Source: Candidatus Schneewindia gallinarum (GTDB lineage Bacteria; Bacillota; Clostridia; Oscillospirales; Ruminococcaceae). Taken from it: a stretch of DNA of 64,000 bases. Position numbers and translations under genes: made by a program. The stretch is taken from contig CAJFUF010000022.1 of NCBI GenBank assembly GCA_904420175.1, positions 2,974 to 66,973 of the forward strand. Direction: 5' to 3'. Positions 20,925-33,471 of the stretch are shown piece by piece. The stretch's first letter is position 1; the number at the start of each line of letters is the position of its first letter. Under the pieces are notes generated by a model. The model was given only the letters and a program-made list of their open reading frames with translations. It was not told where the DNA came from and made no database searches.

Positions 20925-21365
20925 CTACTTTTCCTTTGTTCCACTCTTATCCCGCAGGACCTCAAAGGCGTTTTTAACCGCCTGCGGGATGGGCAGTCCC
21001 ATCAGCCCCAGATTTTCCAGCACGCTTAGCCCATCATTCGCCGTAAAAAACAGAATGGTGGAGGTGCGGATGAAATCCGTGCCGGACAGGGCGTCCAGCT
21101 GGTAGGCCACCAGCACCGCCAGCAGAATACCCGCTTTACGGAAAAGCCCCTTGATGCTGGCTTTACTTTCGTATGCGCCGTCTGTGGTCTTGGGACTTTT
21201 CTTCCACACCAGCGCGCAGACAACCCCGGTCAGGTAGTCTGCTGCCATCATGATGCACAGCGTCTGCAAAGCGGCGTCCCACCCTCCTAACAGATTTGCG
21301 ACGACGCTTCCCGCCGCGGACAGGGCTGCAAGCGTTCCGTAATAGGCCGCCTTTACATGGTTCAC
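20925..21365 (-). CDS. Phage holin (holin_4_1 / toxin-secretion-lysis holin type)
   Basis: 146 aa from GTG; multiple TM segments, MMAADYLTGVV...KGLFRKAGILL...TANDGLSVLENLGLMGLPIP pattern; directly after endolysin. Confidence 0.85.
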   Translation of the reverse strand: MNHVKAAYYGTLAALSAAGSVVANLLGGWDAALQTLCIMMAADYLTGVVCALVWKKSPKTTDGAYESKASIKGLFRKAGILLAVLVAYQLDALSGTDFIRTSTILFFTANDGLSVLENLGLMGLPIPQAVKNAFEVLRDKSGTKEK

Positions 21366-21367
21366 AT

Positions 21368-22177
21368 CTAGGCGCCCCCTTCCGGCAGGCGCAGGGTCTG
21401 TCCGGGGAAAATAAGGTCCGGATTTTTAAGCCCGTTCAGCGCCGCCAGCACCTCCACTGTGGTCCCGTGGCTGATGGCAATCCCCCACAGGGTGTCGCCC
21501 TTTTTGACACTGTAAAGCACCTCCGGCTGCGCAGAGGGGCTTTGCGCCTGTTCCTGCTTGTTCCAGCCGTTCAGGCCGTTGTGGGCCATGATGGCCGGAT
21601 AATTTTTGTATGCGGTGTCAAGATCCACCGCACCTGCAATGCCGGGCACGCTGCCGGAACTGGTGTACTGCCAGATTCCATGTGCATAACCGGTGGGGCG
21701 GCTGGTCCGCCATGCCGCCAGCCACACGTCCCACTGTTTCAGCCGGGCGGCCTCCAAACGGTTTTGCAGCCAGTCCGGGTTGGTGTATAGCATGGCAAAG
21801 TAGCCGTGCTGCTCAATCCTTGCAAGGGCTGCCGCCGCAATGTCTGTCAGCTGGGCGGCCGTCTTTCCGGTGTAGCGGTTTCCCTCGTCCTCCATATCAA
21901 ACGCCACCGGATAGCCCAGCTGCTCGCCGCCAAGCTGGGAAAACAGCCAGTCGATTTCCTGCTCCGCCTCTGCCGGGGTGGTGGCAGTGGTAAAGTGGTA
22001 GATACCCACCTCCAGCCCGGCCGCCTTGGCCCCAGACAGATTGTCCTTAAACTTTGCGTCCAGCCCCTTGCCGTAGCTCGCCCGCAGCATGGCAAACTGC
22101 ACGCCGGACGCCTTTACCTTGTTCCAGTCAATTCCGCCCTGCCAGCGGCTGACGTCAATTCCCCGATAGGTCGCCAT
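21368..22177 (-). CDS. Endolysin: GH25 muramidase with C-terminal LysM
   Basis: Track ORF trimmed to ATG 22177 (AGGAGG SD): MATYRGIDVSRWQGGIDWNKVKASGVQFAMLRASYG; C-terminal YSVKKGDTLWGIAISHGTTVEVLAALNGL..IFPGQTLRLP LysM. Confidence 0.93.
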   Translation of the reverse strand: MATYRGIDVSRWQGGIDWNKVKASGVQFAMLRASYGKGLDAKFKDNLSGAKAAGLEVGIYHFTTATTPAEAEQEIDWLFSQLGGEQLGYPVAFDMEDEGNRYTGKTAAQLTDIAAAALARIEQHGYFAMLYTNPDWLQNRLEAARLKQWDVWLAAWRTSRPTGYAHGIWQYTSSGSVPGIAGAVDLDTAYKNYPAIMAHNGLNGWNKQEQAQSPSAQPEVLYSVKKGDTLWGIAISHGTTVEVLAALNGLKNPDLIFPGQTLRLPEGGA

Positions 22178-22191
22178 TGATTCCCCTCCTT

Positions 22192-23712
22192 TTAATCGTC
22201 GTGGTACTGAATGATGACAAGGCATGCCGCCATGACCATGTCATCCGCGGTAAATCCGCTGCCGAAGGCCCGCACAACCCCGTTTGCCGTCAACGTCTGC
22301 ATGGTCAGCTTACTGACCTTTTCGTACGCGGTGCCGCCAACAGGGCACAGGGTGGCAAGCCCCACGGTGGTGCGTACCCGCCGGCCGTCCGACGGGTAGG
22401 TTACCGTGGCGGACAACTCGGTGGCGGAGGTATATTCCAGGTAGGGCTTGCTGAGGACAAAGACCGTGTTCCCGAAATTCAGGCTTTGGATGTCTGCCAC
22501 TGTCTGCTGAAGGGCCGCCAAATCTGTTGCCGAAGCGGCACCCACGTCTGCGGCGGTCAGGGTGATTTCCGGCCCTGTTTTGCCGTTGACGGTGGCGGGC
22601 GTTCCCGCAGGCCCCTGCGGCCCGGCGTCCCCCTTCTCACCCTGGGGACCGGTCTCACCCTGCGGGCCCTGGGGGCCGGTGTTGCCCTGTGGACCCTGGG
22701 GCCCCGGCTCTCCCTGGGGACCCGGTTCACCCTGGGGGCCGGTTTCTCCCGTGTCCCCCTTGGGGCCCTGAATGCGTCCCACATTCTGCCAGGCGGCGCC
22801 GTTCCACACCACAAGATCCCCGCCGACAAGATAGGCCTCCCCCTCTGTCCCGGTGGGATGGGCCGCCGACAAATCCTCCATACTGTCGTAGCTGCCGGAC
22901 AGCGTCAGCCCTGTGCCGGTGTCGCCTTTGTCCCCTTTGGGGCCCGTGGGGCCGGTCTCCCCCTTATCCCCTTTTTCTCCCTGGGGGCCCGGATCCCCCT
23001 TGGGGCCCTGCGGGCCGGTATCACCCCTGTCCCCTTTGGGGCCTGTGGGGCCGGTCTCACCCTTTTCTCCCTGGGGCCCGGTATCCCCTTTTTCACCTTT
23101 GGGGCCCTGCGGGCCGGTCCCGCCGGCCGGGCCCGTCTCCCCGCGGGATGGCTTGCCGGTGGGCACGCCGTTTACCACCCAGTTCCCATCTTCGCCGATC
23201 TCCGGCGGGACAATGCTGTCCTTGATGGCCTGCGCGTCGGCAACCGCCTCAAGGCAGGCGGTTTTCGCCTGCTCAAAAACGGTGGGCGGGATGTCCGTCC
23301 CCTCCTCCTCGGCGTTCACCGAGGGTTCAATTAAAAAATAGTCCGTAAAGCTCTGCCAGACGGTTTCGTCCCCGCCGTCTACGGGCTTTGTAAAGCGCAG
23401 CTGAAGCTGAAGCGGGCCTGCGGAAAGGGTGTCCGCCCGCTTTAACAGGTAGGAGAGGCGCAGCCGCCCCTCCGGCGCAGCCTGCACTGCATCCAGCGGC
23501 CGGGTGTAGGCCGTACCGTCCGCCCGCCTAAGCAGCAGTGCGGGGGCGCAGCCTGACAAATCCGTTTCGTCCGGCTGTGCCGGTAAATCGAACACCAGCC
23601 GCAGGCTTTCATTGTCCCCTGCAGGGGACAGGGCACGCTCTGCCTCCGGGATGGAGAAGCGCCGCCCGTTTAGGTACAGCAGCCGTCCGTTTTGCACTGT
23701 CCTTCCCCCCAT
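22192..23712 (-). CDS. Collagen-like repeat tail fibre protein
   Basis: Track ORF trimmed to ATG 23712, which overlaps the upstream stop (TGATG). Two Gly-X-Y tracts ([28 protein letters not shown]..., [22 protein letters not shown]...) separated by a ~45-aa globular insert, plus a C-terminal globular domain. Confidence 0.85.
22603..23157 (-). repeat. Coding Gly-X-Y (collagen) triplet repeats, two tracts (about 22603-22767 and 22912-23157)
   Basis: ggn-ccn-nnn periodicity visible in DNA; coordinates derived from residue positions in the ORF. Confidence 0.8.
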
Positions 23713-32268: not shown

Positions 32269-32482
32269 GCTGCGGCGCCCCCTTTCCCCTGGGTTTTCGC
32301 CTCGGCTCCTTTCTAAACAGCGGACAATGGATAATCCGCCAGCTGATGTCCCCATCCTCCCAGATACGGGGAACCGCCGTCCAGCCGGGCACCGGGGTCA
32401 AATCCGCCGACCAGCTGCAGCCTCCGCAGGCCCTGCTGCAATCCCAGCAGGGCTGCTCCTCACTTTTCTTTTTCCGTCCCAT
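32258..32482 (-). CDS. Cys-rich small protein at head of the late operon (74 aa)
   Basis: AAAGGAG SD 6 nt before ATG 32482; MGRKKKSEEQPCWDCSRACGGCSWSADLTPVPGWTAV...IHCPLF; basic tails on both ends. Confidence 0.7.
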   Translation of the reverse strand: MGRKKKSEEQPCWDCSRACGGCSWSADLTPVPGWTAVPRIWEDGDISWRIIHCPLFRKEPRRKPRGKGAPQHDG

Positions 32483-32729
32483 TGCCTGCTCCTTTCCGGA
32501 CTGTCCGTTTTTTGGGACAACCCATCTGCTATACTGTGTTTACAGGAAAATACTTCCTTTCACGGAAATCTTTTCTAAAAATATTCGTTTTGAGTATTTC
32601 TGTTCCTATAATATACCCAATACAGGTAAATGTCAAATTATTTTAAGAAGAAATTTTCTGTTTTGGGTAATCTTCCTCTTGACCGGAGGTGCCGGGCCGT
32701 GTATGATAAAGTCAAAGGAAGTGAGCCTT

Positions 32730-33059
32730 ATGTTAAAGGAACGGTTGCCTGTCCTTCGGCGTTCGAAGGGCTGGACGATGAAACGAATGGCGGAGGAGCT
32801 GTGCATCCCCTACACCACCTATGTGGGATATGAAAAAGGGGTACGCGAGCCGCCGATGGAGCTGCTGGTGCGCATGGCGCGTCTGTTCGGCGTGTCGGTG
32901 GACACGTTGCTTGGCCGCGAGGACAGCCCTGCCCTCGGGGATGAGGACATCAAATTTGCGCTGTTTGGCAACCGCGCCGGTGAAATCACGGACGAAATGT
33001 ACGAGCAGGTCAAAAACTTCGCCGCCTTTTTAGAGAAAAAATATCAGCAAAAGGACTAG
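32730..33059 (+). CDS. XRE-family helix-turn-helix repressor
   Basis: Only the last 330 nt of track ORF 32172-33059 are credible: AAGGAAGTG SD then ATG 32730; MLKERLPVLRRSKGWTMKRMAEELCIPYTTYVGYEKGVREPPMELLVRMARLFGVSVDTLLG. Confidence 0.9.
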   Translation: MLKERLPVLRRSKGWTMKRMAEELCIPYTTYVGYEKGVREPPMELLVRMARLFGVSVDTLLGREDSPALGDEDIKFALFGNRAGEITDEMYEQVKNFAAFLEKKYQQKD

Positions 33060-33066
33060 GTGACGT

Positions 33067-33471
33067 GTGTTGAATTTGCTTAACCTGTACCGCACGGCAG
33101 AGCGCAGGAACGTTGCGGTGGAGTGCTTCCGCCTGGAGGGCACGCCGGCCTGCTCGGTGGAGTTGAACGGCAGGTGCTTTGTGGGGATTGATCCGTTCCA
33201 GCTGGAAAGCACCGCGGACGAGAAGGTGAAGCTGGCCCATGAACTGGGGCATTGCCTGCAGGGTGGTTTCTACCGGCGCACCAGCCCCTTTGAACTGCGG
33301 GAGCGCTGCGAAGTTCTAGCCGACCGCTGGGCCATGACCCAGCTTATGCCGCTGCCCGACGTGCAGGCCGCCATGAAGGAAGGCTGCACGGAGGTATGGC
33401 AGCTGGCAGAGCGGTTCGGCGTGACGGAGGAGTTTGTACACACCGTCCTTGCCGTTTATTTTGATAAATAA
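33067..33471 (+). CDS. ImmA/IrrE family metallopeptidase
   Basis: 134 aa from GTG; HELGH zinc motif (KLAHELGHCL), follows XRE gene by 7 nt. Confidence 0.88.
   Translation: MLNLLNLYRTAERRNVAVECFRLEGTPACSVELNGRCFVGIDPFQLESTADEKVKLAHELGHCLQGGFYRRTSPFELRERCEVLADRWAMTQLMPLPDVQAAMKEGCTEVWQLAERFGVTEEFVHTVLAVYFDK

Follow-up and report, generated by a model that had tools for sequence, protein, structure and literature searches.

A compact podovirus-like head, short-tail and lysis island of Candidatus Schneewindia gallinarum as a candidate gene transfer agent locus

Can a locus of phage origin that encodes a head, a short tail, DNA packaging and lysis functions, but no means of propagating itself, be a particle system that is maintained by its bacterial host? 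This question is raised by an island of 12.5 kb found at positions 20925-33471 of a 64,000-nucleotide stretch of DNA from Candidatus Schneewindia gallinarum (assembly GCA_904420175.1, contig CAJFUF010000022.1, positions 2,974 to 66,973), here called the window. A six-frame list of open reading frames (ORFs), three profile libraries (Pfam, PHROGs and NCBIfam) and gene calls on conspecific contigs agree on seventeen genes within it, all of them intact. Two of these, encoding an XRE-family repressor and an ImmA-type protease, lie on the plus strand opposite a minus-strand operon of fifteen genes (11.6 kb, 32482 down to 20925), and all functions of this operon are contiguous at the one locus. The island probably represents a domesticated, chromosomally fixed particle system of the gene transfer agent (GTA) kind, derived from a podovirus and most like FpGTA of Faecalibacterium prausnitzii, although held in a single locus.

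Gene content and control of the island

A set of genes for packaging, head, tail and release is present, comprising TerL, portal, scaffold, major capsid protein (MCP), adaptor, nozzle, fibre, holin and endolysin, which were recognised by profile match, by fold or by both (Table 1). An initial annotation, made from the letters of the window, had described seventeen tightly packed and intact ORFs with divergent XRE and ImmA genes facing one minus-strand operon, and gene calls on the conspecific contigs return the same set. Its coordinates hold, except that these gene calls place the start of the XRE gene more likely at 32703 (118 aa) than at 32730 (109 aa). Its gene list also stands, with the addition of a 53-aa gene (24497-24658) between the nozzle and 235-aa genes. 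Among the five proteins that it left unassigned, two can now be named as the adaptor (119 aa) and the tail nozzle (494 aa). Both Walker motifs ascribed to TerL are present, and the overlaps between neighbouring genes lie exactly where they were described, namely GTGA at 32065-32068, TGATG at 23710-23714 and 11-nt overlaps at 32258-32268 and 31850-31860, the last of these joining the stop of the TerS-like gene to the start of TerL. A ribosome-binding site of the GGAGG type precedes almost every start in the island, and the fibre gene possesses a second possible ATG start at 23714. The otherwise tightly packed operon also contains a non-coding gap of 216 nt between TerL and portal (30268-30483; 217 nt in conspecific strains), which may hold an internal promoter, a processing site or a site connected with packaging.

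Functions that would allow the island to move or replicate were not found. None of its proteins matched integrase, recombinase, primase, helicase, polymerase or Rep families in the three profile libraries, and prohead protease, tail tube, sheath, tape measure and baseplate families were likewise without a match. These results bear out the corresponding absences listed in the initial annotation, and the profile and structure searches that it had proposed uncovered no hidden replication or integration gene. The flanks of the island consist of host genes, and the longest direct repeat common to both edges is 11 nt (0.5 expected by chance), so the absence of att-like repeats is upheld. The composition is host-like, as had been judged by eye, with G+C at third codon positions (GC3) of 0.775 in the island against 0.803 in 18 host genes. 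Lacking means of replication, excision and integration, the island is therefore expected to be inherited only with the chromosome.

An Rfam scan of the window returned only two tRNAs. A role as att site was considered for a tRNA-Gln/Pro pair (18931-19125) and rejected, since three genes separate this pair from the left edge, 1.8 kb away, and it has no repeat in common with the right edge. The only integrase of the window is a tyrosine integrase with SAM-like N-terminal domains (62746-63933, minus strand; Phage_integrase 2.9e-28), situated 29 kb from the island and adjoined by a gene for a 662-aa beta-helix protein (60095-62083, minus strand). It probably marks the border of another, unrelated mobile element that continues beyond the right end of the window.

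The small terminase is of particular interest with respect to what the particles would carry. The 72-aa TerS-like protein is 43-46% identical to the C-terminal 70 or so aa of DUF5681 proteins of 106 aa that precede TerL in related phages of gut Clostridia (L007, L011 and L013), and the Arg/Gly-rich basic N-terminal arm of these phage homologues (GRGRGRPFQKGQSGNPGGRP) is absent from it. Short TerS-like versions are also found in another set of compact islands, described below as Group A. In RcGTA, loss of the DNA-recognition part of TerS is linked to packaging that is independent of sequence, and Sherlock et al. are said to have described in 2019 that the RcGTA protein lost its DNA-binding region. 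The TerS of FpGTA has been reported to be without an obvious DNA-binding domain (Borodovich et al., PMC12946183).

The proteins of the capsid, neck and tail were compared with those of phages at the levels of sequence and fold. The MCP matches the TIGR04387 'N4-gp56 family' with 286 bits (cutoff 60) and carries an insertion at about residues 233-327. Its AlphaFold2 model (pLDDT 62) had the capsid of phage N4 (9e99) as best Foldseek match, followed by the coat proteins of Sf6 and P22, and the capsid is thus predicted to be of the N4/P22 type. In 50 surveyed loci, the position of the 76-aa protein is taken by a small protein that clusters with it (family s76). The scaffold is 46-48% identical to proteins of 270-283 aa at the same position in the related phages (L007 and L010-L013, below termed L007-type). 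Both ends of the 119-aa protein align with SU10_adaptor-family proteins of 186-187 aa (L007, L012, L015, L017), approximately 65 central aa being missing, and it is predicted to be a head-to-tail adaptor of the SU10 type with a central deletion. For the 494-aa protein only six homologues were available and the AlphaFold2 model was poor (pLDDT 45). The ten best Foldseek matches in the PDB were nevertheless all chains of podovirus tails or portal-tail complexes (E 4e-8 to 1e-5), among them Pa223 (9nwi_Y, 4e-8), SU10 (7z47_G), P22 (8u10), Sf6, VP1, E1004 and P-SCSP1u, with the PhiM1 nozzle and HRP29 tail at ranks 12 and 17. The TM-scores were low (0.2-0.3) though the matches were consistent, which provides consistent support, short of proof, for a tail nozzle. 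The two genes that follow have counterparts in L007-type phages: the 53-aa protein shows 53% identity over 43 aa to the product of a 52-aa gene at the same position, and the N-terminal 105 aa of the 235-aa protein are 52% identical to a protein of 227-228 aa encoded after the nozzle. Searches with the MCP, portal and nozzle sequences against PDB chains gave no sequence-level relative. The encoded particle is thus short-tailed and N4/P22-like, in line with the proposal of the initial annotation.

Control of the operon appears to be exerted from the AT-rich region between the divergent genes. A promoter-like sequence facing the operon (TTGACA-17-TATTAT, minus strand, 32636 to 32608) agrees with the consensus at 11 of 12 positions, and a second one facing the XRE gene (TTGACC-17-TATGAT, plus strand, 32679-32707) stands back to back with it; their function as promoters is deduced from these matches. 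Inverted and direct repeats of the same region (I1-I4 and D1-D2) are candidate operators. The ImmA-type protease is presumed to be an anti-repressor that cleaves XRE, by analogy with the ImmR/ImmA paradigm. The Cys-rich 74-aa protein may, with a question mark, be a regulator, and small Cys-rich or Zn-ribbon proteins are also found at its position in other island clades (f13, f50). The terminator at the left edge is plausibly bidirectional, serving both the left-hand GNAT gene and the holin gene, because an A-run and a T-run are found on its two sides. With a switch and putative divergent promoters of its own, the island appears to have phage-like control resembling that of PBSX.

Table 1. Features of the island, with their positions in the window and the evidence for each assignment
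Feature	Position	Strand	Evidence
Hairpin terminator, left edge	20859..20887		11-bp stem, 7 GC pairs, then T-run
Holin, 146 aa	20925..21365	-	Phage_holin_4_1 5e-33
Endolysin, GH25 muramidase + LysM, 269 aa	21368..22177	-	Glyco_hydro_25 1.8e-37; LysM 3.4e-18
Collagen-like tail fibre / receptor-binding protein, 521 aa	22192..23757	-	Collagen 8e-20; phrog_819 (tail protein) 1e-51
Ala/Lys/Gln-rich virion-associated protein, 235 aa	23712..24419	-	No family match; homologue in L007-type phages
Coiled-coil protein, 53 aa	24497..24658	-	Called on conspecific contigs; homologue in L007-type phages
Tail nozzle (hub), 494 aa, mostly beta	24651..26135	-	C-terminal half phrog_511 1.7e-17; Foldseek
Head-to-tail adaptor, 119 aa	26150..26509	-	phrog_12105 2e-9; SU10-adaptor alignment
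Conserved head/neck-associated protein, 76 aa	26522..26752	-	phrog_15239 1e-7
Major capsid protein, N4-gp56 family, 400 aa	26755..27957	-	TIGR04387 3e-85; phrog_1357 3e-81
Scaffold, 181 aa, N-terminus acidic and Pro-rich	28032..28577	-	phrog_13908 3.6e-14; between portal and MCP
Portal (P22/SU10 type), 554 aa	28603..30267	-	phrog_156 3e-62; P22_portal 1.3e-21; SU10_portal 2e-8
TerL, 458 aa	30484..31860	-	phrog_979 5e-48; Terminase_3; Terminase_6N; Walker A GARGGGKS; Walker B VIFLDEA
TerS-like protein, 72 aa	31850..32068	-	Homology to phage DUF5681 TerS
Zn-ribbon protein, 67 aa	32065..32268	-	CPRC...CEYC motifs in sequence; zero family matches; 67 aa on all conspecific contigs
Cys-rich protein (CxxC...CxxC), 74 aa, first operon gene	32258..32482	-	Zero family matches
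AT-rich switch region, 220 bp	32483..32702		Divergent sigma-70-like promoters and repeats
XRE-family repressor, 118 aa	32703..33059	+	HTH_3 1.7e-12; phrog_8 3e-19
ImmA/IrrE-type metalloprotease (Peptidase_M78), 133 aa	33070..33471	+	Peptidase_M78 2.2e-9; phrog_87 1.5e-22
Hairpin terminator after ImmA, right edge	33472..33497	+	AAAAGGGCCGGTTCATGAACCGGCCCTTTT in sequence

Conservation within the host lineage

An identical XRE protein is encoded on 15 contigs of other samples, and its neighbours in the island are the same on all of them. Four of the 15 contigs reach a flank (L096/L110, L098/L111, L106/L112 and L116) and all place the island at the same chromosomal site. No contig with an empty site was seen among the conspecific contigs, and no indels occurred in any island gene. 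The comparison with related genomes that had been suggested in the initial annotation thus revealed no longer prophage at this site in the closest genomes, but the same compact island in the same place. The second sign of domestication named there, purifying selection, was also found. Within the species, the ratio of non-synonymous to synonymous polymorphism (pN/pS) is 0.06-0.13 for the island, with purifying selection on every gene, and 0.05-0.15 for TerL; between species, the corresponding ratio of divergence (dN/dS) is 0.09. Between strains the XRE gene shows 3-6 synonymous and no non-synonymous changes, which leaves the protein 100% conserved, and the gene of the 74-aa Cys-rich protein likewise shows synonymous changes only. 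Synonymous polymorphism in the island (pS 0.024-0.049) matches that of the flanking host genes (0.015-0.039), which argues that the island diverged together with the chromosome.

The right-hand neighbourhood of the island varies between strains. A large serine recombinase near the locus in one conspecific strain was considered as an island integrase and rejected, as it is part of another element, inserted on the far side of the right-hand GNAT gene, which is intact. This element lies outside the island, between the right-hand GNAT and nucleoside hydrolase genes (L097 16286-18242 and L112 11850-12489, both from sample ERZ28614871), where the assembly breaks off; besides the recombinase, it encodes an HTH_16 protein and a sigma-70 region-4 protein. 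Beside the island, the window has a single gene for an inosine-uridine nucleoside hydrolase (34071-35030), where other strains have three tandem paralogues (L096 13062-16214), and a short contig (L099) suggests a rearrangement or an assembly chimera between the copies.

A search with the nozzle identified the island of a sister species (L120), which is 77% identical to that of the window at the nucleotide level and has a GC content of 55% (62% in the window). The gene order from portal to holin is the same in both. The gene after the holin in L120 is a homologue of a small host gene of the window (19658-19888), which makes the left junction common to both islands. At this junction L120 lacks the left GNAT gene and the MGMT-like gene of the window (within 19658-20855), from which it follows that these two genes have been inserted or lost beside the island.

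Across nine genes of the two islands, dN/dS is 0.09 overall (0.05-0.26 per gene; 0.05 for the 235-aa protein) at a dS of approximately 1.3, over which no frameshifts or stops were found. Purifying selection acts on TerL, the TerS-like protein and portal (dN/dS 0.05-0.15) no less strongly than on the tail and lysis genes, which argues that DNA packaging itself is maintained. In L120 the island has a GC3 of 0.61, against 0.78 in the window (0.80 for the host genes of the window), so each copy has been ameliorated to its own genome. The only part to have been replaced is the C-terminus of the fibre (L120 6335-7647, window 22192-23757): the N-terminal 285 or so aa are 50% identical, while the collagen-like C-terminal two-fifths are swapped for a 352-aa protein and a 101-aa Gp10_C protein. 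This appears to be receptor-binding-domain swapping, as expected for a receptor-binding protein in use. As a whole, the pattern seen in L120 points to long vertical residence under selection for function. The host belongs to a deep uncultured lineage of Oscillospirales, with a best non-self FtsW match of 57% and Youxingia as the nearest named relative (53%); with no closer host relatives in the databases, the synteny comparison has a depth of two species.

Full phages and other compact islands

The wider distribution of these genes was surveyed with an alignment-based capsid scan of GTDB species genomes, from which 80 loci were taken among at least 584 hits; Faecalibacterium is not represented in these 80. 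Greedy ORF maps were drawn for 95 loci, their proteins were clustered, family representatives were searched against Pfam and a neighbour-joining tree of the MCP was constructed. Pfam was also run on two batches of ORFs, 100 from upstream of TerL in 21 loci and 96 from downstream of the nozzle in 18 loci. The capsid family counts more than 8000 database proteins at E <= 1e-20 and occurs in at least 584 GTDB species genomes, almost all of them Clostridia, while a scan of IMG/VR yielded no close relatives among its viral contigs.

On the MCP tree, the clade of the window and L120 is sister to a clade of full phages, the L007-type phages introduced above. From TerS to the 228-aa protein, the structural modules of the island and of these phages are collinear, with identities of 78-80% for the MCP, 66-69% for TerL, 55-61% for portal, 39-40% for the nozzle and 43-46% for the TerS-like protein. 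The phages alone possess RecT, HNH, SSB, HicAB, a full-length DUF5681 TerS of 106 aa, a portal of 664-684 aa, an adaptor of 187 aa and a giant virion protein of 1378-2239 aa with a MuF_C domain; RecT, SSB, HNH, full-length TerS and the giant protein were found neither in the island nor in its flanks. The protein divergence of 20-60% from these nearest phages implies that the island is not a recent truncation. A giant protein of 1400-2700 aa follows the nozzle-associated genes in full phages L010 (8463-15182; MuF_C), L005, L078 and L079, and no other structural feature sets the phages apart so clearly from every compact island examined, all of which lack it.

Two lines of comparison were abandoned. 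Virome records of 11-12 kb labelled 'Bacteriophage sp.', which matched the MCP, were considered as complete mini-genomes and hence as a sign of a 12-kb virion genome, but they are size-sorted unannotated scaffolds, 35-56% identical to the island, and represent fragments of larger elements. The length of portal or scaffold was considered as a proxy for capsid size and rejected, as L078 has the giant virion protein yet a short portal.

The surveyed loci include several compact architectures with housekeeping genes on both sides and no recurrent integrase; on the MCP tree each of them is monophyletic. The first, Group A (at least 7 species; L014-L019 and L023, e.g. L014 2614-14004), is an island of approximately 11.4 kb that extends from TerS-like and TerL genes through an M23 peptidase. 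Its location is conserved, between a pseudouridine synthase/DUF554 pair and rpoD-dnaG-HD, and neither an integrase nor an adjacent repressor is present. The same rpoD-dnaG-HD operon lies 8 kb to the left of the island in the window, and shared synteny with Group A was considered and dismissed, the orientation being different. Groups C and D carry a divergent CI-type repressor (HTH_3 and Peptidase_S24) and are located by RadC/FtsZ or GluRS, while L086 and L092 show the ImmA-XRE arrangement of the window with transporters upstream. Recurring families in both ORF batches were repressors, lysins (M23, Amidase_2/3), collagen fibres and housekeeping genes; among the 25 families listed, no integrase, recombinase or replication family was present in two or more loci of either batch.

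Further variations were noted among these loci. Members of Group D together with L094 (L060, L066, L078, L085, L089, L090 and L094) encode a Prp-type cysteine protease (Peptidase_Prp 9e-13) between portal and scaffold (e.g. L090 3138-3476), a position that is also taken by a Prp-annotated gene in FpGTA, and this clade keeps a TerS with an HTH_23 domain. In L085, rpsP/ffh follow almost directly after the capsid module and a nozzle gene was not detected. In approximately 20 species of Clostridia (Ructibacterium, Monoglobus and others), a six-gene cassette was found that consists of scaffold, N4-type capsid, a small protein, a 258-aa protein, nozzle and a protein of approximately 400 aa (L026-L028, L031, L032, L034-L036, L039-L042, L044, L048, L050, L052, L054, L056, L059 and L071). 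Its MCP gene is located at about 10001-11200 in loci with full flanks, no terminase or portal lies within 10 kb, and the flanks consist of core genes (recF/dnaN, glnA, typA, H+-pyrophosphatase). The packaging genes of this cassette may lie elsewhere, as in a split GTA, or its capsid may be otherwise used.

With the MCP in at least 584 GTDB species genomes, several compact integrase-free clades among the 80 loci and a capsid-nozzle clade that has neither terminase nor portal genes close by, it can be tentatively suggested that the gut Clostridia harbour a superfamily of domesticated podovirus elements with N4 capsids, very large and for the most part unrecognised, of which the island would be one visible member. 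According to this suggestion, which may well not hold, repeated independent domestication of one phage lineage would have given rise to the dominant GTA type of the gut microbiome, with forms ranging from single-locus and repressor-controlled, as in the window, to split over several loci, as in FpGTA.

Interpretation and comparison with known systems

If the island is a GTA-like system, its mode of action can be outlined as follows. In most cells, XRE would keep the single strong leftward promoter (32636 to 32608) shut. A stress signal would activate the ImmA-type metalloprotease, which, following the ImmR/ImmA paradigm, would cleave XRE, and transcription of the 11.6-kb operon would follow, as one translationally coupled unit. 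Small procapsids would be built from scaffold, portal and N4-type capsid protein, and TerL and the armless TerS-like protein would fill them by a headful mechanism that starts without a specific pac site, so that the cargo would be essentially random host DNA. Adaptor, nozzle, the 53-aa and 235-aa proteins and the collagen-like fibre would form the short tail; holin and the GH25-LysM endolysin would lyse the producer cell; and the released particles would adsorb through the fibre to related cells and inject their DNA. Random host DNA as cargo is proposed from the missing arm of the TerS-like protein and by analogy with other gut Oscillospirales, in many of which GTA-like packaging of fragments of 4.1-10.4 kb, against 12.5 kb for the present locus, has been reported, the loci responsible not being identified there (PMC12946183).

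A number of points weigh against a GTA-like system. The nearest relatives outside the clade of the window and L120 are full phages of gut Clostridia, known from metagenomic contigs of up to approximately 38 kb (L007/L010-L013 type), and the sequences make this clade look like an independent, possibly younger, reduction of the same phage lineage than the other island clades. The island has kept a phage-type repressor/anti-repressor switch, unlike the host-integrated regulation typical of alphaproteobacterial GTAs. Purifying selection is expected in any functional prophage too. An alternative upstream GTG would give the TerS-like protein a length of 102 aa with an Arg/Gly-rich extension; this extension is non-homologous to the phage arm, overlaps the Zn-ribbon gene and was chosen on no conspecific contig. 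According to a published allometric model, T=3 capsids of tailed phages hold 8.1-17.1 kb, a range that includes 12.5 kb, and the element could therefore in principle fit its own head. Membership of the FpGTA family in the strict sense is a tentative assignment, made by family name, gene order and fold, and particle formation, induction and random packaging are attributed to the island by analogy.

Three other explanations have to be weighed against this one. The island could be a killer particle like that of PBSX, or an altruistic lysis module, its role being to kill competitors or to release cell contents, with DNA packaging incidental. An Xre-type repressor over one late operon with a lysis cassette is indeed the layout of PBSX, the difference in the fibre C-terminus between the sister species fits selection on target recognition, and the sequence by itself cannot separate a killer role from that of a GTA. 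The equal constraint on TerL, the TerS-like protein and portal, genes that serve to package DNA, speaks against such a role, as does FpGTA, the experimentally studied relative of this type, for whose particles DNA packaging was described. A contractile or long tail is the means by which known killer particles act, and a podovirus nozzle is not known to kill by any mechanism. A role of this kind is accordingly held to be improbable.

A grounded prophage remnant, in which a deletion took away the integrase and replication modules, particles serve no function and the other genes are intact for lack of time or because, for example, repressor immunity is useful, is likewise judged to be an improbable explanation, and by a little the more so. 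It would agree with the full phages that are the closest outside relatives, with their RecT, SSB, HNH and giant virion protein of 1400-2200 aa, and with the internal deletion of approximately 65 aa in the adaptor relative to them. It fits poorly with the lack of any frameshift or stop over a dS of approximately 1.3 and with dN/dS of 0.05-0.26 on every gene, the small ones included. Nor would it readily explain the lack of indels in the 15 conspecific contigs, a composition ameliorated to two host genomes and the protein divergence of 20-60% from the nearest phages.

Least probable of all, and scarcely to be expected, is a self-transmissible or helper-dependent mini-element (a satellite or minimal phage) whose 12.5-kb unit is packaged in its own small capsids and which would draw on the host or a resident L007-type phage to replicate and integrate: its length does fall inside the predicted T=3 range, full phages with homologous TerS and TerL could act as helpers, and a recent preprint describes single-locus GTA candidates as confusable with capsid-forming satellites, but integrase, excisionase, primase, Rep and att repeats were not found in the island, the site is fixed in every flank-reaching contig with a left junction common to the sister species and host-like synonymous divergence, tail and lysis genes are its own, unlike in cf-PICIs, and the IMG/VR scan yielded no close relatives.

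A domesticated GTA-like system thus remains the preferred explanation of the island. FpGTA is already known; to it the island would add a compact and self-contained member with its own repressor switch and lysis genes. Long-read virome work has found gut virus-like particles to be rich in short, random fragments of Oscillospirales chromosomes, and loci responsible for them have been identified only in Faecalibacterium. The present island is a concrete and unusually complete candidate locus for such packaging, in a deep uncultured lineage of Oscillospirales. With all of its functions in a single operon under one repressor-controlled promoter, it would lend itself to experiments on a podovirus-like GTA of Gram-positive bacteria and on sequence-independent packaging with a truncated TerS. 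It also provides criteria for genomic searches, namely a capsid of the N4-gp56 family, a divergent repressor (XRE/ImmA or CI-type), flanks of housekeeping genes on either side and the lack of an integrase, and the survey suggests that such elements are common in gut genomes.

Comparison with described systems places the island at different distances from each. It shares with capsid-forming phage-inducible chromosomal islands (cf-PICIs) a size in the order of 10-15 kb and a capsid, portal and terminase of its own. Those elements possess an integrase, a replication module and att sites and borrow tail and lysis functions from a helper, whereas the island shows the reverse on each of these counts.

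RcGTA is likewise a domesticated cluster of head, tail and packaging genes under purifying selection and vertical inheritance, and GTAs of its type have small capsids. It differs from the island in being siphovirus-like, with an HK97-type capsid and a prohead protease, in its multi-locus organisation and in its control by the host regulators CtrA, GafA and quorum sensing, in place of which the island has a phage-type repressor/anti-repressor pair.

PBSX of Bacillus is a chromosomally fixed element in which an Xre-family repressor controls one late operon for morphogenesis and lysis. It has no functional replication or integration genes, and its particles contain fragments of host DNA that are too short to encode the element. 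The XRE gene of the island is similarly divergent from a single operon that ends in endolysin and holin genes. The tail of PBSX is contractile and myovirus-like, with sheath, tube and tape measure, where that of the island consists of adaptor, nozzle and fibre. In addition, PBSX employs the sigma-like late activator Xpf, while the island has two small Zn-binding proteins and an ImmA-type anti-repressor.

The system most like the island is FpGTA, a podovirus-like GTA with an N4-gp56 capsid (Borodovich et al., Nat Commun 2026, PMC12946183; preprint November 2024). The statement in the initial annotation that no short-tailed N4-capsid example had been described in Clostridia is out of date, as FpGTA is one. 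Its particles of approximately 40 nm, 'most likely podovirus-like', carry 8.4-8.9 kb of host DNA (PMC12946183), so that particles and cargo have been shown experimentally for FpGTA while the island is known from its genes. The genes of FpGTA form two operons, operon I of 10.5 kb and, approximately 125 kb away, operon II of 5.5 kb with fibres, receptor-binding protein (RBP), holin and endolysin (PMC12946183), in contrast to the one 12.5-kb locus described here, a difference of organisation that may not be one by which the family is defined. Other differences are the XRE and ImmA genes at the head of the island operon, where no repressor switch has been described for FpGTA, and a Prp-annotated gene between portal and MCP of FpGTA, where the island has a plain scaffold of 181 aa and no Prp. 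The fibres also differ, being BppU-like, together with a sialidase-like RBP, in FpGTA and collagen-like in the island.

The resemblance between the two is nevertheless extensive. Both are found in gut Oscillospirales, and the MCP of FpGTA (RCH50849.1) bears the same NCBI family name as that of the island. The gene order is also shared, running from TerS-like, TerL, portal, a gene at the scaffold position and MCP through small genes to nozzle, a further small gene and an Ala/Lys-rich protein, as judged from the description of the ten ORFs of operon I and the accession order RCH50852 to RCH50844. By the same accession order and operon description, the 235-aa gene of the island lies roughly where the abundant 'TolA'-annotated RCH50844 is found. 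The TerS-like protein of the island, when read from its 72-aa start and not from the 102-aa alternative, resembles that of FpGTA in being without the putative DNA-binding part. Both systems are free of replication and integration genes, and in both a fibre, a holin and a GH25-type endolysin belong to the system.

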